Below are positions 934 through 19,658 of a stretch of 64,000 bases of DNA, piece after piece. Source of the DNA: Escherichia phage LHE287; the sequence record PP761450.1; one strand, written 5' to 3'. Below the pieces are notes generated by a model that had not been told where the DNA came from, did not search any database, and worked only from the letters and a program-made list of their open reading frames with translations. How positions within the stretch are numbered: the first letter of the stretch is position 1; each line of letters opens with the position of its first letter. A program made the translations under genes and the position numbers.

Positions 934-1590
934 ATGCGTAATGTTTCTATCTGGGAATTGAACGAAGTGATTTCCCGTGACACCCCTCCAATTGTCAGAC
1001 TCTTCCAATACAAGGGTGTCAAGCGCACTCTGAATGAGTTCCTGTCGCCTGTTTACGTCTACCGTGATGGCGGGTTCTTCCGCCGCGATAAAAACATCCC
1101 GAACCTTGGTATGACGTTTGATTTGAGTATCAAAGGCCAGGTTGTATTGATGGGTTATGGTAGCCTGGAACAATCTGAGAAAGGTCAGGGCGCTCCACTT
1201 ATGGTCTTCGGTTCTTTTGAACAAGCCGTGCACTGGCTGATCAGAAACGGATATGATTTCTATGGCGAAGAAAGCGCCAATTGGCGTCGTCGCAAGGTCA
1301 AGTCTGTTGATCTGGTGGATTTGAATCTGATGTACCAGGCCATGGCTCGCGAGTACGAAAAGAATCTCGTCAAGCCTGTCGCTCAGGAGAACAATGTTGT
1401 TAACACTACATCTGAGTCTTCTCATCATGACGTGAACATCGTTCCGGCCTGTGAAACGAAAGCGCCGACACCACCTACTCCTCCGGCCAGTCGTGTTCTG
1501 AATGATCAGGGCGCTCCGGTAAAACAAAAGGTCAAGAAGCCGACTTTCATGGAAAACATGATGAAGTTCCTTCGTCTGTTCAAGAAGTAA
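934..1590 (+). CDS. hypothetical protein (218 aa)
   Basis: ATG preceded by GAGGA RBS; no recognisable motif; lies 70 nt upstream of the PLP-enzyme gene. Confidence 0.55.
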   Translation: MRNVSIWELNEVISRDTPPIVRLFQYKGVKRTLNEFLSPVYVYRDGGFFRRDKNIPNLGMTFDLSIKGQVVLMGYGSLEQSEKGQGAPLMVFGSFEQAVHWLIRNGYDFYGEESANWRRRKVKSVDLVDLNLMYQAMAREYEKNLVKPVAQENNVVNTTSESSHHDVNIVPACETKAPTPPTPPASRVLNDQGAPVKQKVKKPTFMENMMKFLRLFKK

Positions 1591-1659
1591 TCCGAGATTC
1601 TCCTTTTCTATACTCCTGTAGATACACTATGATAAGCCAATGTCTACAGGAGAAATAGA

Positions 1660-2853
1660 ATGAACAAGACCATTTTCGATACCCTTTCCCTCGACCGCAA
1701 TCTGGTCCATTGGGAAGATTATCTCTACAAGCACACCCCGTGCGAACTTGTCGTCAACCCCGAAACCAATCAGCAGGTCTGGTTCAAGCGTGAAGATTAT
1801 TTTGCGCCGCTGTCCAATTATGCAAATGGACAGCAGGGCATCAACGGCAGCAAACTCCGCCAGGCCATCTGGTTGATGGTTGAGCACCTCAAGGCCGGAG
1901 GCTCCCCTGACATCATCCATGGTACTGTCGTTGGTAGTCCGCAGTCCCCTATGGCGACGGCAGTCTCTCGGCACTTCGGTGGCAAGACAACCACTGTACT
2001 CGGAGCGACCAAACCCACCACCTGTATGAACCATGAAATGGTGAAAATGAGCGCCTGGTTCGGTAGTGAGTTCAACTTCGTCGGCTCGGGTTACAACAGC
2101 ACCATCCAGCCGCGCTGTAAGAAGTTGATCGAACAACAGAATCCAAAGGCGTACTATCTGGAATATGGTATCACCCTCGACCATACAGCGCATTCTCCTG
2201 AGCGCATCGCTGGCTTCCATATGCTGGGTGGCGAGCAGGTTGCCAACATCCCAGACCATATCACCGACCTGATTATCCCAGCCGGATCGTGCAACTCTTG
2301 CACAAGCATCCTGACCGGGCTGGCAATGCATCCGAAGCCTAATCTGAAGCGTGTGTATCTGATTGGCATCGGTCCTAACCGCCTTGACTTTATCGAGAGC
2401 CGTCTGCGCATCATCGGCAAACATGCCAATCTGCCGCACATTGTCGACTTCACCCGTCGCTATCACGACAACCCAGACTATGTACACGGCAAGAAGGAGC
2501 TTCAGCATGCCTCTAAGAGCGTTTCGCTGGCTGGCCTCCTAAGTGGTATCAGGAAGAAGGAAGAGCCAGAGGTCGTGCTTCCTCGCTTTGAGGTACACCA
2601 TTGGGATCTTCACACCACTAATTGGGTTCGTTACAATGACCTGATGGAATATCAGTGGGGTGATATCGAATTGCATCCTCGCTATGAAGGCAAGGTCATG
2701 ACCTGGGTTCAGCAACACAAGCCCGAGTTGCTGAACGAGAACACTCTGTTCTGGATTGTGGGCAGCAAGCCGTACATTGAGCCAATGAAGACAGCATGCC
2801 CTGAGCTGGCTATCCCCGAAGCAGTACCTGTAAACGAATTCACCCCTTCCTGA
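1660..2853 (+). CDS. fold-type II PLP-dependent enzyme (ACC deaminase / D-cysteine desulfhydrase / Trp-synthase-beta superfamily)
   Basis: N-terminal motif FKREDYF...GINGSKLRQA resembles the KRED...GGNKxRKLE PLP-lysine region; later loop PAGSCNSCTS in the position of the phosphate-binding glycine loop; RBS AGGAGA. Confidence 0.55.
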   Translation: MNKTIFDTLSLDRNLVHWEDYLYKHTPCELVVNPETNQQVWFKREDYFAPLSNYANGQQGINGSKLRQAIWLMVEHLKAGGSPDIIHGTVVGSPQSPMATAVSRHFGGKTTTVLGATKPTTCMNHEMVKMSAWFGSEFNFVGSGYNSTIQPRCKKLIEQQNPKAYYLEYGITLDHTAHSPERIAGFHMLGGEQVANIPDHITDLIIPAGSCNSCTSILTGLAMHPKPNLKRVYLIGIGPNRLDFIESRLRIIGKHANLPHIVDFTRRYHDNPDYVHGKKELQHASKSVSLAGLLSGIRKKEEPEVVLPRFEVHHWDLHTTNWVRYNDLMEYQWGDIELHPRYEGKVMTWVQQHKPELLNENTLFWIVGSKPYIEPMKTACPELAIPEAVPVNEFTPS

Positions 2854-2988
2854 TCCCTCCTAAATACCCCATACAACCAGTGTGGGGTATCTATGAAACC
2901 TTCCTCCAATATTTCCTAGAGGCGTCCTGTACAAACCAGGCCTGGCACCTAAATACCCCCATATGGCTAACCCACTGAGGAACCCAAC

Positions 2989-3447
2989 ATGCCAACCTCC
3001 AAATTGTTTGAATCAGAATACACCAATGACATCCCTGTATGGACTGGTGTTCAAGACGGTATCACGATTGAGCTGTTTGATCGTGAAGAGACAGGCGCGG
3101 AAGAGATCTATGCAGGCGTTGAAGGCACTGATGTTGTCCGCGCCGCCGTAGCACTTGCTACCTTCCTGGAAGATGCACCGATTGATGGTGTGCCGTTCGA
3201 GGCGCACGTAGATCCCAAGGATCCGACCTCTATCATCATTACAGTGAATGGGGTGCCATACACTTCCTACAGTATCGAGACGGACGAAGAGGGCAGCGGA
3301 GCGCTGTATATTGCCACCGACCTGCAGCTGGAAGACGATGAGATGGATTATCTGATTCAGAACGGGGTGCTGCCACCGTTTACCGATGAAGAACTGGACA
3401 CGGAACTGGCTGCTGTCGGGGACGACGAAGACTTCTGGGAAGAATAA
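2989..3447 (+). CDS. highly acidic protein (152 aa), candidate DNA mimic
   Basis: Asp/Glu-rich throughout (EELDTELAAVGDDEDFWEE); RBS GAGGA; followed by a bidirectional terminator. Confidence 0.55.
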   Translation: MPTSKLFESEYTNDIPVWTGVQDGITIELFDREETGAEEIYAGVEGTDVVRAAVALATFLEDAPIDGVPFEAHVDPKDPTSIIITVNGVPYTSYSIETDEEGSGALYIATDLQLEDDEMDYLIQNGVLPPFTDEELDTELAAVGDDEDFWEE

Positions 3448-3448
3448 G

Positions 3449-3471
3449 AAAAGGGGCTTTAAGCCCCTTTC
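3449..3471. terminator. bidirectional terminator between convergent genes
   Basis: Palindrome AAAGGGGCTT-t-AAGCCCCTTT with A-run upstream and T-run downstream. Confidence 0.65.
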
Positions 3472-3472
3472 T

Positions 3473-4024
3473 TCATTTCACCTTGCGAGTTGGATATTGG
3501 TTAAAGAGTTTGCCCAGCTTAGACACGTTGATGATTGTCTGGGTCTTCCAGCGCTGGATCCCTTCCGGGGTAGTCACGGTCAGGATTGAATGCCCCCAAA
3601 TGTGGGAACCGTCCAGCACAGCCGCGCTGTGGCTACCAATCTTGTCTTCCAGTTTGCAAATGAAAGATTCATACTGATGGGCAGCGTTGCAACGGGCTTC
3701 CTTGATGAACAGACGCTGGCGCTCTGGATCAGACTTGACGATGTTAGGCGCACCCACTTGATAAGAGCGGTTCGGCGGGTTATTGTCGGCGGTCAGGCTC
3801 ATATACAAAGACTGCTTTGCCTTCATGCGATGGTAATCGTGGTGACCCATTCTGACGCCAACAGTGGATGGCCAAGGAGCGCACTTCTGAAGATCCCAGC
3901 CGTTGGCGGCTAGATCGTCCATCACGTTCTTGATGATTTTGTTCGCGTACTGCTCGGCAGCTTCTTCGGCCTGCGACAACAGAGGCTCAACAGCGATACG
4001 GACAGCAGTTTTTGGCATTGTCAT
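3473..4024 (-). CDS. hypothetical protein (183 aa)
   Basis: ATG with AAGGA RBS on the minus strand; no recognisable motif. Confidence 0.55.
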   Translation of the reverse strand: MTMPKTAVRIAVEPLLSQAEEAAEQYANKIIKNVMDDLAANGWDLQKCAPWPSTVGVRMGHHDYHRMKAKQSLYMSLTADNNPPNRSYQVGAPNIVKSDPERQRLFIKEARCNAAHQYESFICKLEDKIGSHSAAVLDGSHIWGHSILTVTTPEGIQRWKTQTIINVSKLGKLFNQYPTRKVK

Positions 4025-4047
4025 GATATAGTCCTTCAGTTCAAAGT

Positions 4048-4065
4048 AAGCCCCCTGAGGGGCTT
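4048..4065 (-). terminator. hairpin downstream of the minus-strand gene (terminator or RNA-stability element)
   Basis: AAGCCCC-CTGA-GGGGCTT stem-loop; only a weak T-run. Confidence 0.35.
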
Positions 4066-4072
4066 CAGTCGA

Positions 4073-4630
4073 TTAGAAGCGGGAATCCAGCCAGGCGTTC
4101 TTTTCGTTCTGCCACTCCCAAGCGGCCTGACCGCCAGCCATGATCACTTCCAGGGAAGGAGTATTGTCATCCTCGCCGCCGTGAAGGTCAGGGTCGAAGC
4201 CGTCGTCTTCAGGATCGTCTTCACATTCATTCTGATAAGCGGAATATTCGATGTAATGGGCTTCGGCTTCGCAATCCATGTCACCCAGAGCTTCCTCGAG
4301 GGACATTTTGCCTTCGGCAATCAGCTCGGCAGTCGCATCGTCCAGGCCTGCGTCTTTCGCTTCAACGAACAGTTCGTGACGTTTCTGGAAAAGGAAGAAG
4401 TTCATGGCTTCAATGCGTGAGTCGAAGTACTCTTTGCGGGGAATCATGATTTCACGACCATCGACTTTGCTTACCATCAGCAGGTGTGAACCGTATTCAA
4501 CCAGGTAGCGACCGCCTTTCACTGGGTTGGAACCGTCAATTGTACCCAGAGTGGTGATTGCGCGGCCTTCTTCAGTACCGTACATTACAGTTTTGCCAGA
4601 TTTGGATTGAGCGATAATTTCGATTGCCAT
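4073..4630 (-). CDS. hypothetical protein with acidic C-terminal tail (185 aa)
   Basis: ATG with GAAGGAAA RBS; C-terminal DDPEDDGFDPDLHGGEDD. Confidence 0.55.
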   Translation of the reverse strand: MAIEIIAQSKSGKTVMYGTEEGRAITTLGTIDGSNPVKGGRYLVEYGSHLLMVSKVDGREIMIPRKEYFDSRIEAMNFFLFQKRHELFVEAKDAGLDDATAELIAEGKMSLEEALGDMDCEAEAHYIEYSAYQNECEDDPEDDGFDPDLHGGEDDNTPSLEVIMAGGQAAWEWQNEKNAWLDSRF

Positions 4631-4675
4631 GATGTATTTCCTTCTCTTCAGATTGTTGTTCGTACTACAATTAGA

Positions 4676-8690: not shown

Positions 8691-9032
8691 ATGAAACTCA
8701 ATAAGATTCTTCTGGTGTGTGCTCTGGCTTTCTCTACCACTGCGTGTTCCACCCTTCTGGACGTTGCTTCTACTGTAGACCTTGACGCGCCGACGTTCAC
8801 CAATGAGCAGGCCGTGTCCAAGATGGAAGACACCATCAAGGCGCATGCAGCACTGGACAACACTACCCCAGGTCCGCTCCAAACTGTCTGCAACTATGAC
8901 GATTCCATCCAGGAAGACGAAACTTACCACTGCATCACCTACGTGAAGCAGGCCTCCGTCGTTCTGTATGCAGATTGTACCGAAGAACAGTGTGTTGCTA
9001 CAGGCTACGATAAAGTTGAGGAAGACAAATGA
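8691..9032 (+). CDS. putative secreted protein or lipoprotein (113 aa)
   Basis: Signal-peptide-like N-terminus MKLNKILLVCALAFSTTAC with Cys after the hydrophobic core; internal ATG chosen for its AGGTGA RBS. Confidence 0.5.
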   Translation: MKLNKILLVCALAFSTTACSTLLDVASTVDLDAPTFTNEQAVSKMEDTIKAHAALDNTTPGPLQTVCNYDDSIQEDETYHCITYVKQASVVLYADCTEEQCVATGYDKVEEDK

Positions 9033-9805
9033 ACAACCTGGTTTGTATCTATGATATGAAATCAAAGGTCGGTGGCCTGTATCGCGTCCTCGTGGATGTT
9101 GACCTGACGTTGGTCGACAGCCTCTCCCCTTGGGTGCAGTGGTTTAACGAAGAGAATCTCAGCTTATCCAAGCATTATGACGGTCATGGACCAGCGCCGT
9201 TCCAGCCGATTACCAAAGAGTGTTATATGTCCCATGCTGGCGACCTGGCTATTCTGATGCGTGAACGTGCGCATCCGGCGTGGCTATACCATGAAGTCCA
9301 ATTGGGGATGCACAAACAACGTGTGCCAAGCGGTAACGATCCTATGGACTGGTGGCGTCGCCCTGACTTGTACGCCAAGATGAACCCACTTCCTGGCGCT
9401 TACGAGTTCCTGGTGAATCTGAAGAAGATTCTGCTCGAAGACTTTGACAATGTTGAATTCATCGCAGTGTCCAAGTGTGAGCCGGAACACGAGCGCAGCA
9501 AGCGCCAGTTTGTCTATGACAAGTTCCCTGGTATCTTCAACGGGTTTGTCAGCACCGACGAAAAGCATCTGCTGGCTGGCGATGTCCTGATTGATGACAA
9601 TCCGAAGTATGTCGAGCCATGCGGCCTGAACAACATCTTTGTCATCTTTGTTCCTCAGGGCAATTATGAAAAACTGGATCTTTCGAATTCGGAAGACATG
9701 CTTTATATTAAACCAGTAGAAGGCCAGAATCACTTCGACTTCCTGAACCGCAATATTGTCGAAGTGGTGAACCGCCTGATTAGTCATTATCAATACGTCC
9801 GATAG
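9029..9805 (+). CDS. HAD-superfamily phosphatase, candidate 5'(3')-deoxyribonucleotidase
   Basis: HAD motif I VDVDLTLVDS near the N-terminus and DD motif VLIDDNPKY; start overlaps the upstream stop. Confidence 0.45.
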   Translation: MNNLVCIYDMKSKVGGLYRVLVDVDLTLVDSLSPWVQWFNEENLSLSKHYDGHGPAPFQPITKECYMSHAGDLAILMRERAHPAWLYHEVQLGMHKQRVPSGNDPMDWWRRPDLYAKMNPLPGAYEFLVNLKKILLEDFDNVEFIAVSKCEPEHERSKRQFVYDKFPGIFNGFVSTDEKHLLAGDVLIDDNPKYVEPCGLNNIFVIFVPQGNYEKLDLSNSEDMLYIKPVEGQNHFDFLNRNIVEVVNRLISHYQYVR

Positions 9806-9814
9806 GAGGACATC

Positions 9815-10120
9815 GTGCAAGAACAATCCAAGTTCGGGGAAACCCCAGACAAGCATTCCGGTGATAGCGACATGGATGGTGTGATTATCTATGTGAACAA
9901 CTTCATTCGTCAGCAGGAGACTCCAACTCCTATCGGTGCAGCCAAGGCTCTTCATGATGTACTGGTGAAGATCGGCCAGCGCTCTGAAGCAGATGAAATC
10001 TTCTATAACTTCGACGACCAGTATAAAGTTAAGTTTGAAGAGAATGGCCACCCACAGGTTGCTGTGTTCTGGGCACCTTGGCTGGGCGGCGTGAGCTGGC
10101 GTATTGAGGATGCTGTGTAA
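9815..10120 (+). CDS. hypothetical protein (101 aa), GTG start
   Basis: GTG start with strong AGGAGGA RBS; stop overlaps the next start (TAATG). Confidence 0.5.
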   Translation: MQEQSKFGETPDKHSGDSDMDGVIIYVNNFIRQQETPTPIGAAKALHDVLVKIGQRSEADEIFYNFDDQYKVKFEENGHPQVAVFWAPWLGGVSWRIEDAV

Positions 10121-11037
10121 TGGCAAAAATTATCGTAGTGAAAGGAACCAGCGGTACGGGTAAGGGCACCCGTGTTGTCCAGTTCATCGAATGGCTGCGC
10201 ACTAAGCTGGAGCCTACCGAACTGACCTACACCGTTGGTGACAAGACTCGCCCGTTTGGCTTGAAGTTCGGAGAGCTGAAGTTAATCTTCGTTGGACAGT
10301 ACACCGTGTCTAACAAATCCGGCCTGGCTTCCTGGACTTCAATGGATGCAATCCATGCTGCTACAGGCTCAGGCGATATTGCTCGTGATCTAATCAAGTG
10401 CTGGTTGGTTCAGGGATACACTCTGGTGTGCGAGGGTGAACCCCTCATGCTGTCGGACAAATGGCGTCCTGAATGGATGTTCAAGAACTATCCGATTGAA
10501 TCATTGGCGCTGCTGTACTTTGCGTACCCCGACCGCTATCAGTACGATGCTCGTATCCGTGGTCGATCTGGTAAAGAAGCAGGGAACTCCGGCTGGTCGC
10601 GCAACGAATCTTACTACAAGGAGTTTGAGAAGTCGAAGGCCGAAATGCTGGCGCTGGGCTTCACTGTGGCTGTTGATGATTACAGCGGACAGGATATCCT
10701 GTATAAATCACCGGATGCCAACACCCAGGAGTTCACGACCAAACAGCAGTCCGAGTTGGCGGTACTACCGTTCGACGCCCCGCTGTGGGTTGTGGGTAAT
10801 GCGATTTGTCATCAGATACGCTCTGAACTGCGCGGTGTTGACATGCACACCAAAGACTTCTACGCCTACTGTGAAACCAATCCGATGACTCGTGAAATCG
10901 GCGGCCAGGATCCTTTGGCGCACAGAGTCCCTGAGAAGCCGCAGAAGGCATCCAAAACTAAAACCAAGGCGAGCGCCCAGCCAGAAGCAACGAAGGCAGC
11001 GTCGCGCTCTCTCCTTGACCTGATGAAGAAGGGGTGA
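10120..11037 (+). CDS. P-loop kinase, paralog of 51529..52188; candidate 5-hmdU DNA kinase
   Basis: Walker A GTSGTGKGT at the N-terminus, Walker-B-like LVCEGEP; shares motif order with the second P-loop protein; basic low-complexity C-terminus. Confidence 0.5.
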   Translation: MAKIIVVKGTSGTGKGTRVVQFIEWLRTKLEPTELTYTVGDKTRPFGLKFGELKLIFVGQYTVSNKSGLASWTSMDAIHAATGSGDIARDLIKCWLVQGYTLVCEGEPLMLSDKWRPEWMFKNYPIESLALLYFAYPDRYQYDARIRGRSGKEAGNSGWSRNESYYKEFEKSKAEMLALGFTVAVDDYSGQDILYKSPDANTQEFTTKQQSELAVLPFDAPLWVVGNAICHQIRSELRGVDMHTKDFYAYCETNPMTREIGGQDPLAHRVPEKPQKASKTKTKASAQPEATKAASRSLLDLMKKG

Positions 11038-11039
11038 TC

Positions 11040-11237
11040 ATGAAACGGTTGTCTAATTATCTGTTGTTCATTGGTCTGGTTATGGCAGCCGTTTCAATGT
11101 GTACTGCCCTAGCCTATCATTTCACCCCTCTGGACTTAACAACCTCAGAGAAGTTGAACGTGACTGTGATGTACTGTATTGGCGCGGTGATGTCTATCGG
11201 CGCTGCTGGTTACAAAATATTCAAGGAACCAAAATGA
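11040..11237 (+). CDS. small membrane protein (about 65 aa)
   Basis: Two hydrophobic segments; ATG with GGGGTGA RBS. Confidence 0.4.
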   Translation: MKRLSNYLLFIGLVMAAVSMCTALAYHFTPLDLTTSEKLNVTVMYCIGAVMSIGAAGYKIFKEPK

Positions 11238-11611
11238 AAATTCAAATTCCTCGCGATGCTGTGGCTGTTGCGATCGACTACACCGGAAACGCCAAGCACA
11301 TTACTGCCGTGCGCCTGATTCCTGAAAAGAACTGCGTCATCCCTCAGTTCCAACTGAATGCCAATCCGTCATCCAAAGACTTCGGCAAGTGGTTGCAGGC
11401 TGCTCCGTTCCGTACCCAGACGAACGCTCAGATGTTCATCTCGGGTAAGACTCACACTGCAGCCCGTCTGTGGTTCGTGACCGCTGACCGTCGCTTTGTC
11501 GATATGTGGGAACGTCCGATGGGGTTCGTGAAGCCGGAAGATATTCAGCTGGCTCCTGAGCCTGAAGCTGTGGCTCCTGAAGAGGAAGCGAAAGATGCAT
11601 CATTTATCTAA
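11234..11611 (+). CDS. hypothetical protein (125 aa)
   Basis: Start overlaps the upstream stop (ATGA); internal ATG of the track ORF 11099..11611. Confidence 0.45.
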   Translation: MKIQIPRDAVAVAIDYTGNAKHITAVRLIPEKNCVIPQFQLNANPSSKDFGKWLQAAPFRTQTNAQMFISGKTHTAARLWFVTADRRFVDMWERPMGFVKPEDIQLAPEPEAVAPEEEAKDASFI

Positions 11612-12830
11612 AATGCCGACGGGCTATACGCCTCCGGCTGAATGGAAGTACCCGATTGACCTGGCTGTTGATTATCGCAAGCCTGAGAATCGCATGTACC
11701 TGCTCAAGGCTTGGGTGGAGGCGCTGTCCTACACAGAAGAGCACAACCAGCAGATGCGTCTGATGGACTATGCGATCGAAGTCACTGAAGGCATCAGCCT
11801 CGAACAGAAAGTCGAGCGCAAGATCTGGATGGCATTCCTGTGGGGTTGTTGCTATAACGCCGTCGGGCCGTGGACGATCTACAGTGAGTTCCCTGTGCCA
11901 CCTCAGTCTAAGGAAGAGATGCAGCGCTTCTCTGATTGGTATAATCTGAACTTTGATCGCATGCGATTCGATACCGACTGTCGCTACCGCAAGTCCAAGA
12001 TGATTCCGTGTGTTCAGTCCTATATTGACTGGCTGGCTGGTCGTACTCAATATGACGCTTTCCGTGGGATGTTGGTGTGCATCGATAAGACAGAACAATT
12101 CACCCAGCTGTGGGACACGGCGATGTCCTGGAAATACTTCGGTCGCCTGAGCGCCTGGAACTTCCTAGAAGCCCTGAACATGGTCTTCGGGAACGAATAC
12201 ACCATTGACGTCCCTGGCTTCATGCTGCGTGATCGTGATGGAAGCGAGTCCAACCGTAATGGCGCGGCGTTCTTGTCCAACCGTGACGATTGGGTGACTA
12301 AACACGGGAAGAAAAAGATCAACGGTTGTCCTATCACGGATGAAGAGTGTGACATCCTTGAGGCCGACCTTGAGCAGGCGTTCCAGGATTGTGTGGCTGA
12401 GTTCGGGCACCTGACGTTCATCAACCGCCTGAACTTTGAAACCTCCGGCGCTTGTTGGCTGAAGAAATTCTTCCGACTGAAGAATACCCGTTACATCGGG
12501 TGGGACGCAGAGCGTACCTGGGATGAGATAGACTACATGGAACGCGTCTGGCCTGAATACTCCTGCGCAGCGCTCTGGGAAGCCCGTTCGCTCTGGCTGC
12601 CAGATACCCTGTTGTGCGAAAAGGCTCCTGCAGGGCACGTTCCAGGCGTCCAGAAGTGGAAGATGCCTGTATTCTTTGAGACTGGTGTTCCTCTGCATAT
12701 CTGGCACCTGCAAAAGGGTACGCGCTGGGAACCGTCCGAGGTGTGTACGAACCTGAAGATGCCTGTGCGTAAGGTTGAGGACAAGTCGAAGTCCAGCAGT
12801 GTCAACCTCATGGCACTCTTGAAACGCTGA
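11595..12830 (+). CDS. hypothetical protein (411 aa), Trp/Cys-rich; candidate DNA-modification enzyme
   Basis: ATG with GAGGAAG RBS; co-transcribed downstream of the P-loop kinase; no motif recognised by eye. Confidence 0.5.
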   Translation: MHHLSKMPTGYTPPAEWKYPIDLAVDYRKPENRMYLLKAWVEALSYTEEHNQQMRLMDYAIEVTEGISLEQKVERKIWMAFLWGCCYNAVGPWTIYSEFPVPPQSKEEMQRFSDWYNLNFDRMRFDTDCRYRKSKMIPCVQSYIDWLAGRTQYDAFRGMLVCIDKTEQFTQLWDTAMSWKYFGRLSAWNFLEALNMVFGNEYTIDVPGFMLRDRDGSESNRNGAAFLSNRDDWVTKHGKKKINGCPITDEECDILEADLEQAFQDCVAEFGHLTFINRLNFETSGACWLKKFFRLKNTRYIGWDAERTWDEIDYMERVWPEYSCAALWEARSLWLPDTLLCEKAPAGHVPGVQKWKMPVFFETGVPLHIWHLQKGTRWEPSEVCTNLKMPVRKVEDKSKSSSVNLMALLKR

Positions 12831-12866: not shown

Positions 12867-13034
12867 ATGTTACAAGATCTGCTGGTTTATGCGCTTCCTG
12901 GCGCGGTTGTCGGCTTCATCGCTGGTGCTCTGGTCTTCCGTAAACACGCGCAAGATGGTGAAGTGATTGTTCAGAAAGGCAAAGAGATTCTGGACCAGAT
13001 CGAAGCCAAACTGGAAGAGCTGAAGAAAAAGTAA
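12867..13034 (+). CDS. small single-pass membrane protein (55 aa), probably late-expressed
   Basis: MLQDLLVYALPGAVVGFIAGALVF hydrophobic helix then a charged coiled-coil-like tail; absent from the ORF track because shorter than 60 aa. Confidence 0.45.
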   Translation: MLQDLLVYALPGAVVGFIAGALVFRKHAQDGEVIVQKGKEILDQIEAKLEELKKK

Positions 13035-13057: not shown

Positions 13058-13099
13058 TAAAGGGGAATGGGTTATTATTAGCCCGTTCCCCTTTCTTTT
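13058..13099 (+). terminator. rho-independent terminator
   Basis: AAAGGGGAATGGG-ttattattag-CCCGTTCCCCTTT followed by CTTTTT. Confidence 0.6.
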
Positions 13100-13201
13100 T
13101 GCAAGAATATACATCATGGCAATGCAACGAATTGAAGATATGTCTCTACTCAACATGGAAGCGACTTTTAGCGCTTCCGTTATCGTCATGGGAGAATCCA
13201 A

Positions 13202-13420
13202 ATGATCAAGAATACCCGAACAATGAAGCGCGCAATCGCTCACTGTGTCCATTCAGTGGCAACTATTATGTTCCGCCACCACATCACATTTGATGAAGCA
13301 CTGGACCCACAGTACCATGAAGAGCGTTGGGATTTGTTGTTAAAGAACGGCGCCAATCCTGAGCATAAAGATCAACTCCTTGGGATGACCAAGGCGCAGC
13401 TCGTCGGTGAATCCAAATGA
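13202..13420 (+). CDS. hypothetical protein (72 aa)
   Basis: ATG with GGAGA RBS; stop overlaps the next start. Confidence 0.45.
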   Translation: MIKNTRTMKRAIAHCVHSVATIMFRHHITFDEALDPQYHEERWDLLLKNGANPEHKDQLLGMTKAQLVGESK

Positions 13421-14532
13421 TCTACCTCCTGTTTGGTGTGCCATTGGTACTGGCTATCCTGTTTGTGACCTACCATCGCAAGACCCATGAGCCGAAAGAG
13501 ACTCTGATAGCGACCGCGATTGTAGTGGTGCTATCCTGTCTGATTCAGGCGGGGACTTATGCTGCGTTCTCCCTTGGCAGTTCAGGGGATGTTGAGATCC
13601 TGAACGGGTACGTCACTGCAAAGGAGCGGAATAAGGTGAGCTGTGAGCATTCATATGAATGCAACTGCTACTACACCACATCGTGCTCCGGCTCCGGCAG
13701 CAGCAAGTCCTGTACCCGCACTCGCCATTGCAGTACATGTTATGAGCATTCATACGACATAGATTGGGATGTGCTGACAACCGTTGGCAACCTGACGATT
13801 GATCGTATTGATCGCCGTGGTCTTAGTCAGCCCCCGCGCTGGGCGCAGGTTCAGATCGGCGAACCCGCAGCCCGTGAGCATTCCTACATGAACTATGTGC
13901 TGGGTAACAAGGACTCTCTGTTCTCTCGTTCAGACCAGCAGTTTGCTGAGCGCTTCAAAGACAAGATTCCGAAGTATCCCGAAGTCTATGACTACTATCG
14001 TGTCACTCGTGTACTGAATGTGTCTGGTCTGGCGTTACCGACCACATACTGGAACGATTATCTGAACAATACTCTGAAAACATTAGGTGCTTCACGTCAG
14101 GTCAATATCGTCTGGGTTGTGACTTCCGGCCAGCCAGTTGAATACTTCCAGGGCTTGGTCTATGCTTGGGATGGTGGTAAAAAGAACGACGTTATCGTCG
14201 TGACCGACATCAGCAAAGATCTGAAGATCAACTGGGGTAAGAGCACTTCGTTCGCTGATGGTATGCATAACCGTGAACTCCATTCTCGTAATGGCATGGC
14301 TCTCACAGGTCACGACATGGGCGTCGGTGTCATGGCTGATGTTGTCGCTAACATCACCAAAGGCTACAACCGCGTTGAGATGAAGGAAATGGAGTACCTG
14401 AAGTGGCGGGAACTCAAGACCTGGGAAGTTGTGATTGTTGTTCTGCTAGGCTGTCTGCCGTTCACCGCAATTTTCATATTACAGCGAATGGAGTACAATG
14501 GTGGCCGTCGTCGTTATCCGTTTAATTTTTAA
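13417..14532 (+). CDS. Cys-rich membrane protein with N- and C-terminal TM helices (371 aa)
   Basis: N-terminal helix MIYLLFGVPLVLAILFV, repeated EHSY(E)C / C-x-C motifs, C-terminal helix VVIVVLLGCLPFTAIFIL; sits immediately upstream of the LemA-like gene. Confidence 0.5.
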   Translation: MIYLLFGVPLVLAILFVTYHRKTHEPKETLIATAIVVVLSCLIQAGTYAAFSLGSSGDVEILNGYVTAKERNKVSCEHSYECNCYYTTSCSGSGSSKSCTRTRHCSTCYEHSYDIDWDVLTTVGNLTIDRIDRRGLSQPPRWAQVQIGEPAAREHSYMNYVLGNKDSLFSRSDQQFAERFKDKIPKYPEVYDYYRVTRVLNVSGLALPTTYWNDYLNNTLKTLGASRQVNIVWVVTSGQPVEYFQGLVYAWDGGKKNDVIVVTDISKDLKINWGKSTSFADGMHNRELHSRNGMALTGHDMGVGVMADVVANITKGYNRVEMKEMEYLKWRELKTWEVVIVVLLGCLPFTAIFILQRMEYNGGRRRYPFNF

Positions 14533-14550
14533 TCAAAAGAGGAAGTAAGA

Positions 14551-15120
14551 ATGTCTCAATCTAAGGGTATCGCAACAGGTTGGATAGTTGGTTTGGCTTT
14601 GCTGGGTATAGTGATTCTCGGCATCAGTACAGTCATCAGCTACTTCAACGACTTCAACCGCACTGAGCAGCAGGTCAAGAAGTTCAACAAAGACTCCGAG
14701 AACTACCTGAGCAACTACACGCTCAAAGTTCAGGAGACGGCGCAGATTCCTGACATGTATAAAGACGGCCTGAAGGAAGTGATCAAAGGCACGTTCGAAG
14801 GGCGTTATGGCGCTGATGGTTCCAAGGCCGTCATGCAGTGGATCCAGGAGCAGAATATTCAGTTCGATTCCAGCCTGTACAAAGAGATCCAGGTGGTGAT
14901 CAGTTCTGGGCGTGATGAATTCCGCATCAGCCAGACCAAGAAGCTGGATATCTGCACAATATACGAAACCAAGCTGGCTCAGTTCCCTGGTTCGTTGATT
15001 GCTGGCATGTTCGGCTACCCGCGTATCGACCTTGACAAGACCTGCCAGGTGGTGAGCGATACCCGTACCCAGGCCGCGTTCGACGCTGGTATTCAGAAAC
15101 CGATTAACTTCAAAGGCTGA
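14551..15120 (+). CDS. LemA-family-like membrane protein (189 aa)
   Basis: N-terminal TM helix; C-terminal region RISQTKKLDICTIYETKLAQFPGSLIAGMFGY matches the LemA pattern R-I-x(n)-FP-x(4)-A-x(2)-FG-F/Y; AAGAGGAAG RBS. Confidence 0.45.
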   Translation: MSQSKGIATGWIVGLALLGIVILGISTVISYFNDFNRTEQQVKKFNKDSENYLSNYTLKVQETAQIPDMYKDGLKEVIKGTFEGRYGADGSKAVMQWIQEQNIQFDSSLYKEIQVVISSGRDEFRISQTKKLDICTIYETKLAQFPGSLIAGMFGYPRIDLDKTCQVVSDTRTQAAFDAGIQKPINFKG

Positions 15121-15124
15121 TGTC

Positions 15125-15538
15125 ATGAGCGTGAAACTCACTGAATCCCTGACACTGGACCAACAGCAGGCTCTGTTGGATGAAGTAGTGATCTCTGCTA
15201 TCAAGCAAGGGATTATCAAAGACGACTTGTTGATTGACCGCCCCGAGATGATCCATCATCTGGTGGTGTGCCTGGGTGAGGCCAGCAACCCTCGCAAGAA
15301 GATCGTGCTGTTTACTGATGGTGTGATCCTTCCGAGCGGGAAATGTGCGTTCTTGGATGTGGTTGAACATCCGAACACGAAAGGCAAAGAGGTCAAGACT
15401 TCTGTTCCGGTGACTCCATACACCGAGGGTGTTGACCAGCTGTCTTGGTTTGAGACAATCAACACCATTTATGTGATGACACCGGACGGTAAACCAGTTC
15501 GGGATCTACGAGGCGGCAAAGTAGAATCTGAAGACTAA
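15125..15538 (+). CDS. hypothetical protein (137 aa)
   Basis: ATG 5 nt after the upstream stop; no recognisable motif. Confidence 0.5.
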   Translation: MSVKLTESLTLDQQQALLDEVVISAIKQGIIKDDLLIDRPEMIHHLVVCLGEASNPRKKIVLFTDGVILPSGKCAFLDVVEHPNTKGKEVKTSVPVTPYTEGVDQLSWFETINTIYVMTPDGKPVRDLRGGKVESED

Positions 15539-15552
15539 TCGTTCTTCAATAA

Positions 15553-15586
15553 AAGGGGATAGGGTATTATTGCTCTATCCCTTTTT
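15553..15586 (+). terminator. rho-independent terminator
   Basis: GGGGATAGGG-tattattg-CTCTATCCC followed by TTTTT; preceded by a TTCAATAAA box. Confidence 0.6.
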
Positions 15587-15650
15587 CGTGGACAAGGAAC
15601 ATGACAGACAATCCAAGAAAGATGAAGAACAAACGCCGGAGCAAACGCTG

Positions 15651-16106
15651 ATGACTACCAAACCAACTTATGAAGAACTGGCGCAGACCGTTCTGACCTT
15701 TGACAGCACCCTGAAGAATCTTTACAAGGTGCTGGGAAATAACCCGACTTCAGAGTCAGGAGAAACAGTTAATCTTCTGTTACTGATGAACCCTCTGTGG
15801 GATATTGATGCCACTATTGCTGCCCTGAAAGATCCTGGGGCACAGGAGCCGGAGCCAACCCCTGTATCCACTGGGATTCAGAAATACCTGGAGAACTTTG
15901 ACGAGTACTCCTTCACCGATCTGCTCCTGCGTGATATGATCAACACAGAACGCCGTCGCCAGGGGAAGAACTGTCCTGTGGTCCAGTCTGATGAAGAAAT
16001 CGAGCAGAGTGTTCGAGAAGATTTGAACAGCACCTACTCGCCGATCGATCTGGCTGTAATGATTGTTCAGGCACTGTCCTATGCTGCCAAGGGGGAAACG
16101 AAATGA
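15651..16106 (+). CDS. hypothetical protein (about 151 aa)
   Basis: First in-frame ATG downstream of the terminator, with GGAG upstream; the track ORF starts at an alternative codon inside the terminator. Confidence 0.45.
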   Translation: MTTKPTYEELAQTVLTFDSTLKNLYKVLGNNPTSESGETVNLLLLMNPLWDIDATIAALKDPGAQEPEPTPVSTGIQKYLENFDEYSFTDLLLRDMINTERRRQGKNCPVVQSDEEIEQSVREDLNSTYSPIDLAVMIVQALSYAAKGETK

Positions 16107-16901: not shown

Positions 16902-19658
16902 ATGAAAATGCGCAAGTCCGAGCACTTTATCCGCTCGTCGTCTTCCATTCAGGGGCAGGCGTTCAACGTGAAGATGAACGATAAGATGTTTGAGACTCTG
17001 TTCTCATCATTGTATCGTTACAAAGAGGCTGCAGCCCTGCGCGAAACCGTCTGTAACGCCATCGACTCCCATGGCATGCGTGATCGTATGCACCGTATGA
17101 TAGCATCCCACTACGCGCCTCTCACTCCGCCTCCTGCCCGCCATAGCAAATACCTTGCACCGAAGGGTAAGCAGGTTGTTGTGCATCTACCTGATGACTT
17201 TGAACCATGGCTGGAAATCCGTGATTACGGCATCGGTCTGCCACTCGAGAAGATCATTGGCGAGCCTATCCCAGCGCAGGAAGATGAGGTGCTGCTGGAA
17301 GGCAACATGGTGGTCAAGGAAGACGAGATCCCTGACTCAGCTGAGGTCATCGGCGTGCCTGCGTTCTATAATGGTGGTCTAGTGTTCCGTCGCGAGGATG
17401 GTGAAATCATTCGTACGCCTGGGTTGTATACCACTCTCTTCCACAGCACGAAGGAAGAAGATGATGATCAGATTGGGGCATTCGGTCTTGGCTCCAAATC
17501 ACCATTTGCGGTATCGGATTCGTTCACTGTGGAAAGCCGCATGGACGGTAAACTCCATCGCTTCCTGATGTACCTGAATGCCAAGCGCATCCCGACTGTT
17601 GATCTGATCACCAAAGATCTTGAAACCCGTGATCCTAAGCCGGAAGACACCGATGAGTTCAATGGCATGACGGTAAAGATCCCGGTGAAGAACGCTCGCT
17701 TCTCCGCATTCTCTGATGAACTGGTCCGTCTTGGTCGTGTTATGCGCCCTGAACAACGTCCAATTGTTGAGAACGCTTCATACCGCTTCAGCTGGGAAGA
17801 TATCAGTTATGATTTCAAGGTCAACAACACGTACATCCAGCCGAAAGGCCAGGGGAACACCCATTATGCTGTAATGGGTGGCGTGTCGTACCCGATTGAC
17901 CTGAATCAGCTCGACCCAGACACTTCCTCTATCATGAGTAAGTTCCCGTCGTCTTATACATTCTTTGAACTTGGCTCGCTGAACGTACCACCGTCGCGTG
18001 AAGACCTTTCATATGACGAATTCACGCGTGAGACGCTCTCTGAGGAGTTTAAGGGCACCGCCAATGCAATCTTGACAGAAAAGATGCGTGACCTGGAGCT
18101 GGCGTGTAAGCGCGGTCCTCTTGCCCTGTATATGGAGAAGGTAAAACTGAGTGAAATGTTCGGCAGTGGGTTCCGCAAGATGGTTGAAAAGGAATACCCG
18201 GCTGACAAGCGCTTCCACGATTCATATTACCGTTACCCGCTGCCTGTTGAGATTGATCGCGATTATGACCATACCGCGCCGTTCAATGAGCTGTCATCGC
18301 CGTTCTCTATGGAGATCTTCTATGACTGGGGTGAGTCCAGTAATTTGACCATTTCAGAAATCCAGAAGTGGATTGATCGCGGCCAGCATGTTACTGTGGT
18401 GATCGAAGATAGTGTTCGTGCTCGTAACCTGAAGATCAAGCAGCTGAAAGATACAGGGACGATAGTCATCGTGGCCAAGCCGAACACATCCTATGTCACC
18501 AAGCGCAACCAATCTAAGGACAACCCTGCGTTCAAGAATTCTCAGGCTCTCTATGATTTCTTTGAAACTTGGATTGGTAAAGAAGAAACGACGATTGATT
18601 ATCTGTGCTTCGCTGACAAGTTCGTCGATTGGCTGAGTGCGGTGTTGGAGCCTGCTGAAGTCAAGTTCATGAACGAACTGTCGTATGTCACGCCCCCGGT
18701 CACCAAAGACCCTGGCCTGTTTCCGTTCACGCGCAGCAACTTCGACATATACCAGTATGAAGAACTGACGGGCGACCAGATCTCAGATATCATCAACAAG
18801 GGCGAGCGCATCGTCTATATTGAGGTGTCTGGACATGCGTGTATCCATCAGGTGATGGACAGAACGTTGACGACTGCGGCGGCGCGGGGTATTCGTAAAT
18901 CTCTGTATGAGCACGCAGTCAGTGTCGACGATGAAGGCAAGCCAGTGTACATCAGCGATATGTTGAACGTTCACAACCGAATCTTCTTGGCTCGTCGTAA
19001 ATCCGTGCCAATGATGAAGAAGTTCCCAGAGGTCTTCATACCGATCGATGAAATCCTGAAGATCATGTTGGAAAACGTGAAGCCTATGATGGAGCGCGAT
19101 AGCGCCAGGCGCATACTGGAATCATACCGCCGCATGCGCCTTGGGGCGGATCGATTAAAATACGGGAGCCATCTGGTTCATCAGGCGTTTGGTGATGTTG
19201 AAGACGATCGTTATGGCAAATTGGTCAGCCGTTACAACAAGTTAATGAAAGTTGTGGACGATATCTTGGATGAGCAGACTGTACGTCATTACCAAAGCCT
19301 GGCGAAAGCCCCGGTTTCAATCAATGACAAGCGTCGATTTAGCCATTTCCAGGACACAATACATTCTCTTAACGTGAATTTGTACGCCAACGAGCGTGAC
19401 GAAAAGATCTTCCGTTCAGAACATCAGATGCTACAGATCTTTGAATGCGCTTCGGATGTGTTGCGGTTTCATGGATTTACACCGTTTGATATATCGAGGA
19501 CTCCGTCATTGAAAGCAAGGCGGGAAAACCGATTGACCATCGAGCGTCATCGTGTTGTCCGGTTCTTGAAAGAGAATTACAAACCGAGCGCCCTGAACCC
19601 GATTGAAAATTCTTCGGATTACTTGGAAGTTATTTCAAATTCCATTATCAGGGCATAA
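16902..19658 (+). CDS. rIIA: rIIA-like protein with GHKL-type ATPase domain (918 aa)
   Basis: GHKL N-box-like ETVCNAIDSH and G1-box-like IRDYGIGLP; size and position upstream of the topoisomerase genes as in T4; start codon choice uncertain. Confidence 0.45.
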   Translation: MKMRKSEHFIRSSSSIQGQAFNVKMNDKMFETLFSSLYRYKEAAALRETVCNAIDSHGMRDRMHRMIASHYAPLTPPPARHSKYLAPKGKQVVVHLPDDFEPWLEIRDYGIGLPLEKIIGEPIPAQEDEVLLEGNMVVKEDEIPDSAEVIGVPAFYNGGLVFRREDGEIIRTPGLYTTLFHSTKEEDDDQIGAFGLGSKSPFAVSDSFTVESRMDGKLHRFLMYLNAKRIPTVDLITKDLETRDPKPEDTDEFNGMTVKIPVKNARFSAFSDELVRLGRVMRPEQRPIVENASYRFSWEDISYDFKVNNTYIQPKGQGNTHYAVMGGVSYPIDLNQLDPDTSSIMSKFPSSYTFFELGSLNVPPSREDLSYDEFTRETLSEEFKGTANAILTEKMRDLELACKRGPLALYMEKVKLSEMFGSGFRKMVEKEYPADKRFHDSYYRYPLPVEIDRDYDHTAPFNELSSPFSMEIFYDWGESSNLTISEIQKWIDRGQHVTVVIEDSVRARNLKIKQLKDTGTIVIVAKPNTSYVTKRNQSKDNPAFKNSQALYDFFETWIGKEETTIDYLCFADKFVDWLSAVLEPAEVKFMNELSYVTPPVTKDPGLFPFTRSNFDIYQYEELTGDQISDIINKGERIVYIEVSGHACIHQVMDRTLTTAAARGIRKSLYEHAVSVDDEGKPVYISDMLNVHNRIFLARRKSVPMMKKFPEVFIPIDEILKIMLENVKPMMERDSARRILESYRRMRLGADRLKYGSHLVHQAFGDVEDDRYGKLVSRYNKLMKVVDDILDEQTVRHYQSLAKAPVSINDKRRFSHFQDTIHSLNVNLYANERDEKIFRSEHQMLQIFECASDVLRFHGFTPFDISRTPSLKARRENRLTIERHRVVRFLKENYKPSALNPIENSSDYLEVISNSIIRA

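Follow-up and report, generated by a model that had tools for sequence, protein, structure and literature searches.

Which known membrane-protein system, if any, is represented by two neighbouring genes of Escherichia phage LHE287, and what could large lytic phages gain from keeping it? The genes occupy 13417-14532 and 14551-15120 on the plus strand of a 64,000-nucleotide stretch of the phage DNA (sequence record PP761450.1; hereafter, the window) and encode proteins of 371 and 189 residues, exactly as delimited in an earlier note made from the sequence alone. That note took the shorter product for a LemA-like protein and the longer one (the partner) for an anonymous Cys-rich protein with two membrane helices, the two forming an accessory envelope module possibly engaged in superinfection exclusion or host membrane manipulation. 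The results presented here strongly support a more specific answer: the two genes are transcribed and inherited together and form a divergent phage branch of the LemA-TPM pair of bacteria, in inverted gene order. The partner is not the anonymous protein described, being predicted to have three transmembrane (TM) segments and a C-terminal ectodomain of TPM fold, and through this fold the pair becomes recognizable as a phage counterpart of the LemA-TPM operon of bacteria.

The shorter protein shows the architecture for which it was assigned to LemA, namely one TM segment at its N-terminus (residues 4-35) and the signature F145-P-G-S-L-I-A-G-M-F-G-Y156 (14983-15018, plus strand), which aligns to the RFPTVIxAxMFGF motif of bona fide LemA proteins. 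Its 189 residues compare with 186-195 in the latter. Because the direct Pfam scan stays below threshold, the assignment needs profile-profile evidence, and here the comparison was positive. A profile of 39 phage sequences matches one of 24 PF04011 proteins with 97.2% probability (hhalign, E = 3.9e-11) over 156 columns, spanning the TM helix to the FP…A..FG[FY] motif. The best match of the phage profile in the PDB is LemA from Thermotoga maritima (2ETD, E = 3.2e-4, residues 32-160 aligned to 10-155). Matches between the hidden Markov models (HMMs) are reciprocal, the phage model finding Thermotoga and Neobacillus LemA at 41-42 bits. Direct PF04011 matches among the relatives are weak and limited to just 8 of 39 sequences (best E = 0.0016). 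A search of 5.8 billion proteins yielded 97 relatives, all of about 180-200 residues, from Ackermannviridae, T5-like phages, and uncultivated phages, none of them with a precomputed Pfam domain; a few records (RPN242, Turkey5, and one UniRef entry) are already named LemA. The AlphaFold2 model is all-helical, with a predicted local distance difference test score (pLDDT) of 84; Foldseek returned no significant match to it, and the LemA assignment is based on sequence profiles. Weak matches to Spore_III_AF, DUF948, LeoBC, and PRK06030 were judged to be effects of TM-plus-helix composition. For the two proteins of the window themselves, Pfam, NCBIfam, and PADLOC gave nothing over threshold, and single-sequence PDB searches gave chance matches only (ATP synthase subunit k and a natural killer cell lectin receptor). 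Judged by the profile comparisons, the 189-residue protein is a LemA homologue, belonging to a separate subfamily below the current Pfam thresholds.

The partner begins with two TM helices (residues 1-21 and 27-54; 13417-13578, plus strand) linked by a short basic loop (HRKTHEPKE). They are followed by a putatively periplasmic Cys/His-rich β-domain (residues 55-165; 13579-13911), a TPM-fold α/β domain with a conserved W-x-G-G-K-K-N-D-V motif (residues ~199-330; 14011-14406), a third TM helix (residues 333-358; 14413-14490), and a short basic tail (NGGRRRYPFNF), all on the same strand. Membrane helices at both ends had been correctly foreseen in the earlier note, but their number is three rather than two, according to both hydropathy and an AlphaFold model from a 40-sequence alignment (pLDDT 88, predicted template-modelling score 0.76), in which N-terminal helices at 2-20 and 26-54, a β-rich domain with strands at 57-158, an α/β domain at ~199-330, and a C-terminal helix are found. 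The two N-terminal helices are the least conserved part of the partner. Within the pair, conservation is highest in the β-domain, 30 of whose 107 columns are at least 90% conserved over phages of Alpha-, Beta-, and Gammaproteobacteria.

The β-domain contains the motifs C76-x-H-S-Y-x-C82-x-C84 and C105-x-x-C108-Y-E-H111-S-Y-D, with seven cysteines within residues 76-108. A repeated EHSY-C-x-C pattern had been reported for this region; EHSY does occur three times (residues 77, 110, and 154), but the full pattern fits the first copy only, the second reading C-S-T-C-Y-EHSY and the third being devoid of cysteine. The residues C76, C82, C108, H78, and H111 are near invariant, whereas C84/C105 and C90/C99 are lost pairwise. 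The odd number of cysteines and the two invariant histidines suggest that the domain might hold a metal site besides its disulfides. The β-domain could be placed in neither a family nor a solved fold.

The structural model indicates that the C-terminal ectodomain of the partner has the TPM α/β fold. PF04536 is the most frequent weak Pfam match among the partner relatives (7/40, best E = 1.8e-4), and hhalign matches the W-x-G-G-K-K-N-D-V motif to its counterpart in a Thermotoga TPM protein. The comparison with a single bacterial TPM sequence is weak (hhalign, 25%, E = 7.5e-4), and the partner profile retrieves LolA only from the PDB (E = 1.4). The order of elements used to recognize TPM proteins, an extracytoplasmic domain and then a TM anchor, is present in the partner, whose third TM helix follows the TPM domain. 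A HMMER profile scan of 1.84 billion representatives delimits a discrete partner family of 2,123 clusters with uniform length; the homologues whose annotations were examined are called "hypothetical" or "membrane protein".

The bacterial counterpart, LemA (PF04011; T. maritima TM0961, PDB ID: 2ETD) with its PF04536 neighbour, combines the same two types of protein, encoded by adjacent genes of one strand. A PF04536 gene whose start overlaps the LemA stop comes directly after both the Thermotoga gene for the 2ETD protein and a LemA gene of Neobacillus; its product has a signal peptide, a TPM domain, a TM helix, and a Gly-rich tail. Phage and bacterial LemA proteins have in common their size, the single N-terminal TM helix, and the FP…A..FG[FY] motif, while the TPM proteins share the succession of TPM domain, TM helix, and tail; the ectodomains of both families are predicted to lie outside the cytoplasm. 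The two versions differ in several respects. In bacteria LemA precedes TPM, whereas in phages the TPM-like gene comes first. The phage partner has two additional N-terminal TM helices instead of a signal peptide, an added Cys/His β-domain of ~110 residues, and a short basic tail in place of the long Gly-rich one. In the phage LemA-like protein, the segment EGRYGADGSKAVMQWIQEQN is phage-specific and highly conserved, and a covarying cysteine pair (Cys135 and Cys165) is present in 23 sequences, missing altogether in 16, and never reduced to one residue; the LemA domains of the 24 bacterial sequences examined contain no cysteine at all. Another likeness is offered by the pspA-ydjGHI operons of Bacillus subtilis, which comprise a zinc-ribbon membrane protein, the TPM protein YdjH, and a band-7 protein (PMC11237479). 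Here too, and in connection with envelope stress, a TPM membrane protein is accompanied by a Cys-rich module and further membrane proteins (PMC11237479); the phage unit differs in having no PspA or band-7 gene and in the fusion of its Cys-rich part, predicted to be periplasmic, to the TPM protein.

The pair forms the middle of a transcription unit of four plus-strand genes. The first (13202-13420) encodes 72 residues (PHROG 16350, unknown function), and its stop overlaps the start of the partner gene (ATGA). The partner gene (13417-14532; PHROG 2087, without assigned function) is separated by 18 nucleotides from the LemA-like gene (14551-15120; PHROG 1383), which is preceded by a Shine-Dalgarno sequence, and the last gene (15125-15538) encodes 137 residues (PHROG 4236, unknown function). 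An intrinsic terminator on the plus strand (13059-13094; 16-bp stem and T-run, AATAAAGGGGAATGGG...CCCCTTTCTTTTT) ends the upstream unit and marks the start of that of the pair, and a second plus-strand stem-loop (15556-15586; GGGATAG / CTATCCC and T5), missed by the consensus scan on account of its 12-nucleotide loop, closes it. Terminators are annotated at the homologous positions of both in Dickeya phage LIMEstone1. The two hairpins have a near-identical frame, AATAAA(A)GGGGA…TATTATT…CCCTTT(C)TTTTT, which looks like a terminator cassette reused around small transcription units.

Compared with LIMEstone1, this region is 89% identical in DNA, but the partner and LemA-like proteins are 96.0% and 96.3% identical in sequence; both open reading frames (ORFs) are, by this measure, real genes under purifying selection. 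An antisense ORF of 228 codons (14533-15219, minus strand) spanning the whole LemA-like gene is most likely spurious, the plus-strand frame being strongly conserved as protein. The 137-residue product was rejected as a member of the module: its 267 records (tblastn) are essentially all from Ackermannviridae, and because of this confinement the mobile unit appears to be the two-gene pair.

The pair is far more widespread, with about 490-500 phage records for each gene; its description in the earlier note as an accessory envelope module outside the T4 core is supported, and the module is a conserved one. Among 50,697 phage records, tblastn found 486 with the partner and 501 with the LemA-like protein, i.e., ~1% of sequenced phages. 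The records for partner and LemA-like protein run in parallel from host to host: Salmonella (168/166), Escherichia (62/62), Klebsiella (55/54), Erwinia (29/29), Aeromonas (26/25), Acinetobacter (23/23), Serratia (22/22), Vibrio (22/22), and Dickeya (19/19). The carriers comprise Ackermannviridae, T4-like phages of Aeromonas (phiAS5), T5-like vibriophages (phi 3 and KIT04), ICP1, Rak2/GAP32-type and Erwinia jumbo phages, Delftia phage ΦW-14, Acinetobacter Saclayvirus, and Sinorhizobium phage ΦM12; among the matches listed, all carrier genomes are of at least 100 kb. The ectodomains are strongly conserved across these phages of Alpha-, Beta-, and Gammaproteobacteria. Both things whose absence was to count against the earlier note, a LemA profile match and the occurrence of the pair in related genomes, have been found.

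Linkage of the two genes is tight. In each of 14 curated phage loci, HMM scans showed the partner gene directly followed by the LemA-like gene on the same strand. A further 110 loci were taken from IMG/VR (80) and GTDB genomes (30), of which three end just past the partner gene. In the remaining 107, the genes are directly adjacent in the same order in 99, in the same order with a gap of 348-1289 nucleotides in three, and in reverse order in one, whereas four have the partner only; both genes thus lie on the same strand within 3 kb in 103 loci. Pairwise identities of the two proteins correlate with r = 0.92 over 105 non-identical loci (0.67 among distant pairs), a value reached by none of 500 permutations, and their mean divergences are near equal (39% and 37%). 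The surrounding genes are different in ICP1, phi 3, phiAS5, ΦW-14, and Saclayvirus. No earlier description was found of the partner as a TPM protein, of the pair as a LemA-TPM lineage of phages that has an added Cys/His domain and inverted order, or of its tight linkage across ~1% of sequenced phages.

Bacterial genomes seldom contain the phage-type partner (30 of ~185,000 species representatives); it was found nearly always on contigs of metagenome-assembled genomes (MAGs) and in two isolates. One isolate, Achromobacter anxifer LMG 26857, has the pair on a 487-kb contig ~500 nucleotides downstream of a full-length RecA gene (PF00154, 472 bits); within that locus (1290-4639) the pair is surrounded by ORFs without a family, and a large prophage, a phage-plasmid, or chromosomal DNA are all possible. 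The MAG contigs from GTDB are binned as Saccharibacteria, Paceibacterota, Kaiserbacteria, Sungbacteria, and Vampirovibrionales, and are either phage contigs caught up in the binning or derived from phages of those lineages that carry the pair. Weak partial matches were also seen in megaphages of Bacteroidota, including Prevotella Lak megaphages (to the LemA-like protein) and an uncultured 595-kb phage, and in a Gram-positive jumbo phage, Bacillus phage G (to the C-terminal half of the partner); they suggest more distant phage lineages of the module. In Cronobacter phage GAP32, a homologue of TelA (toxic anion resistance, PF05816, 164 bits; 717-1865 of the locus), another protein of membrane-stress type, is encoded two genes upstream of the pair.

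Both proteins very probably have their anchors in the cytoplasmic membrane and their folded parts in the periplasm. Three observations argue for this placement: the covarying cysteines of both families, the LemA-like homologue of Vibrio phage phi 3, in which a lipobox takes the place of the TM anchor, and a positive-inside charge bias with the N-terminus inside, seen in 90% of the phage and 96% of the bacterial LemA sequences. Pairwise loss of cysteines in the partner points to an oxidizing compartment for its ectodomain, and the bacterial TPM partner proteins have signal peptides.

What the pair does in that location can be proposed by analogy. The LemA-like protein is predicted to be a type II membrane protein, held in the host cytoplasmic membrane by its one N-terminal helix with the folded domain in the periplasm, and the partner to be held by two N-terminal and one C-terminal helix bracketing the β-domain, stabilized by disulfides and possibly by metal, and the TPM-fold domain. 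Together they would most likely form a periplasm-facing complex on a deeply conserved inner-membrane complex or envelope component of the host; the likely interaction sites are two phage-specific and highly conserved surfaces, the β-domain and residues 64-105 of the LemA-like protein. Stabilizing or re-tuning this target would keep the membrane intact and energized for as long as the lengthy infection cycle of large lytic phages lasts. Such a role is suggested by the periplasmic placement, the restriction to large lytic phages, the conserved ectodomains, the early/middle position beside rIIA/rIIB, and the TelA homologue of GAP32.

The TPM domains studied so far reportedly serve membrane complexes as extrinsic subunits at their outer face, in accessory or assembly roles: Psb32, TLP18.3, and LMTP1 are said to act on the lumenal face of photosystem II, and AscF is said to be a subunit of the mycobacterial complex III-IV supercomplex. 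These proteins are only 8-17% identical to the phage partner; they have target complexes, and the partner differs from them in its extra β-domain and its LemA-like companion. Bacterial TPM proteins have been proposed to be chaperone-like assembly factors for membrane complexes rather than phosphatases (PMC11237479; PMC12419801); reports that some members act as phosphatase or nucleotidase or bind metal are disputed (PMC11237479, PMC12419801). They are genomically linked to the PspA and band-7 envelope-stress systems (PMC11237479). In an sppA (signal-peptide peptidase) mutant of F. columnare under membrane stress, lemA and a TPM gene are co-induced (PMC13236525). Kuttervirus phages also have an SPFH/band-7 lipoprotein, Sajous1 gp200, recorded at a low count in a virion preparation (PMC10892097); as band-7 is a genomic partner of TPM and PspA in bacteria, a phage may carry several proteins of the envelope-homeostasis type.

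Several points weigh against this explanation. The LemA-like protein scores 13.7 bits (E = 0.055) against Pfam PF04011, below the gathering cut-off of 26.2, and matches in the C-terminal motif region only; the partner of the window has no match to PF04536 at E ≤ 1. The literature search returned no functional study of any phage LemA or TPM protein (most matches to "LemA" were author names or the unrelated Pseudomonas GacS). The functional analogy draws on distant TPM relatives, the role of the bacterial LemA-TPM pair is itself unsolved, and both the complex of the two proteins and its host target are proposals by analogy. The position among early/middle genes is only suggestive as to timing. 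The statements on identity, topology, and module can be made with high confidence, while the proposed maintenance of the envelope by stabilizing or re-tuning a membrane complex is tentative, its chance lying somewhat below even; the explanation as a whole comes closer to an even chance. A chaperone-like role for membrane complexes or envelope maintenance seems, by analogy, the most likely one. Of the two functions raised in the earlier note, host membrane manipulation is the one that we infer and favour.

The other function, superinfection exclusion, is made less likely by how deeply the ectodomains are conserved among phages of distant proteobacteria. The periplasmic domains of an inner-membrane pair might block genome entry or the cell-wall enzymes of incoming tails, as do T4 Imm and Sp, and an accessory pair of such topology, located in a non-structural and likely early/middle region and spread horizontally among unrelated lytic phages, would suit that purpose. 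T4 Imm and Sp, like RI and RIII in lysis inhibition, are likewise accessory inner-membrane or periplasmic phage proteins made during infection. However, no sequence or fold relationship to any of the four was detected, and they are much smaller and lineage-restricted, unlike the pair with its wide conservation and cellular ancestry. The exclusion proteins known so far are small, evolve fast, and are specific to a lineage; the conservation of the β-domain over phages of three proteobacterial classes argues instead for a conserved host target rather than the variable apparatus of a rival phage. The pair is also derived from a bacterial module of housekeeping type, and no defence model matched it except, weakly, LeoBC. 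On balance, exclusion is unlikely.

A bolder version of the envelope reading, somewhat less probable than exclusion, makes the phage-specific, near-invariant β-domain an undescribed periplasmic ligand- or metal-binding domain that, carried on a scaffold of TPM and LemA, would lock onto one universally conserved machine of the diderm envelope, for which a respiratory, Sec/YidC, Tol-Pal, or lipid II-handling complex could be candidates.

Slightly more doubtful again is a role as a companion of rIIA/rIIB, in which the pair would sense or buffer membrane damage and so protect the phage from membrane-acting effectors of abortive infection and other defences. Such a role would be in keeping with the location of the pair ~1.8 kb upstream of rIIA/rIIB in Ackermannviridae, with the nearby TelA homologue of GAP32, with the PspA and band-7 linkage of TPM, and with the nature of the carriers as large virulent phages with many counter-defence genes. 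Yet the proximity to the rII genes is confined to Ackermannviridae, the pair having other neighbours in the five carriers compared above, and the proposal is purely inferred and overlaps the favoured explanation, from which it is hard to tell apart.

Control of lysis timing is an improbable alternative, a shade more so than defence protection. Periplasmic domains regulating a holin, endolysin, or spanin in the manner of an antiholin or T4 RI, or acting as a spanin-like element, would agree with the gross shape of the LemA-like protein, in which an N-terminal TM helix, a helical periplasmic domain, and a predicted disulfide recall an i-spanin or antiholin; in ΦW-14, moreover, the pair lies ~1 kb downstream of an endolysin gene. 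In most lineages, though, it does not adjoin lysis genes, PHROGs places neither protein in a lysis family, and the pair is homologous to a bacterial, non-phage module. The spanin version was rejected: there is no outer-membrane lipoprotein, the partner being a three-TM protein of TPM type.

A virion component, in one version a membrane-inserting protein ejected with the DNA, is very improbable, for although PHROG 1383 is labelled "virion structural protein" and many RefSeq records bear this product name, every paired record submitted to GenBank reads "hypothetical protein" with the label in the RefSeq copy only, the LemA-like protein (ORF195) is absent from the mass-spectrometry table of LIMEstone1 virions, whose ORF list ends at 174, it is missing as well from the proteome of caesium chloride-purified Sajous1 virions (Table 6 in PMC10892097; the two genes are gp96 and gp97 there), and it is encoded outside the structural clusters and homologous to a cellular membrane protein. 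The text of the ΦPD10.3/23.1 paper gives no ORF identities. The label on the LemA-like protein is unsupported by the two virion proteomes. The protein is also called "major capsid protein" in Pectobacterium phage DU_PP_V and Shigella phage Gloob, a clear mis-annotation that has entered UniRef.

The surroundings of the unit are those of a ViI-like phage. By megablast, the segment 12800-15600 is 98% identical to Escherichia phage YX22, 97% to AV101, and 89% to LIMEstone1, and on account of these identities the window is assigned to an Agtrevirus-like member of Ackermannviridae, with a T4-related layout but distinct from T4. The unit is located between DNA-modification and replication genes on one side and rIIA/rIIB on the other; in Ackermannviridae the latter follow ~1.8 kb downstream of the pair, with RIIA encoded at 16902-19658 in the window. 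Directly upstream is a thymidine hypermodification set (10120-12830, with further genes at 1660-2853 and 9029-9805) typical of ViI-like phages, comprising 5-hydroxymethyldeoxyuridine DNA kinase 2 (10120-11037; Pfam HMUD2, 527 bits) and the amino-acid:DNA transferase ADDT (11595-12830; 203 bits), near a pyridoxal phosphate-dependent enzyme and an NT5C-like nucleotidase. Farther away in the window are genes for a family B DNA polymerase, RIIB, a Hoc-like immunoglobulin-type protein, and topoisomerase II.

Between the ADDT gene and the strong terminator, a gene at 12867-13034 stands alone and encodes a 55-residue protein with one TM helix, a glycine-zipper-like motif, and weak Pfam matches (PHROG 3879); a late promoter is annotated for its LIMEstone1 homologue. 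At 13095-13201, between the terminator and the 72-residue gene, AV101 and CBA120 have two additional small ORFs that the window does not contain (3317-3751 and 2690-3105 in the stretches compared), and the megablast match to these genomes is broken into two pieces there. Downstream of the unit, the program-called TTG start of the ORF at 15570-16106 overlaps the closing terminator; the true start is probably the ATG at 15651, since the Pfam DUF7181 match begins at residue 28 and the AV101 homologue is annotated as a 151-residue product.

Few families of bacterial membrane proteins without an assigned function are as widespread as LemA and TPM, which are almost always encoded together. A compact and strongly conserved version of the pair persists in hundreds of large lytic phages that infect important pathogens (Salmonella, E. 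coli O157, Klebsiella, Vibrio cholerae with ICP1, Acinetobacter, and Dickeya), and its conservation argues that the module is useful within a single infection cycle. Two spreading annotation errors can be corrected, namely the naming of the LemA-like protein as "virion structural" or "major capsid protein" and the description of its TPM-like partner as merely "hypothetical". If the β-domain does lock onto a conserved envelope machine, the pair would be a general device of large lytic phages for taking over the envelope and would provide a first experimental handle on the ubiquitous bacterial LemA-TPM module. The main use of the finding is a tractable route to LemA-TPM function, as the module should be accessible to simple phage genetics, with ICP1 and Ackermannviridae as candidates and phenotypes within minutes.

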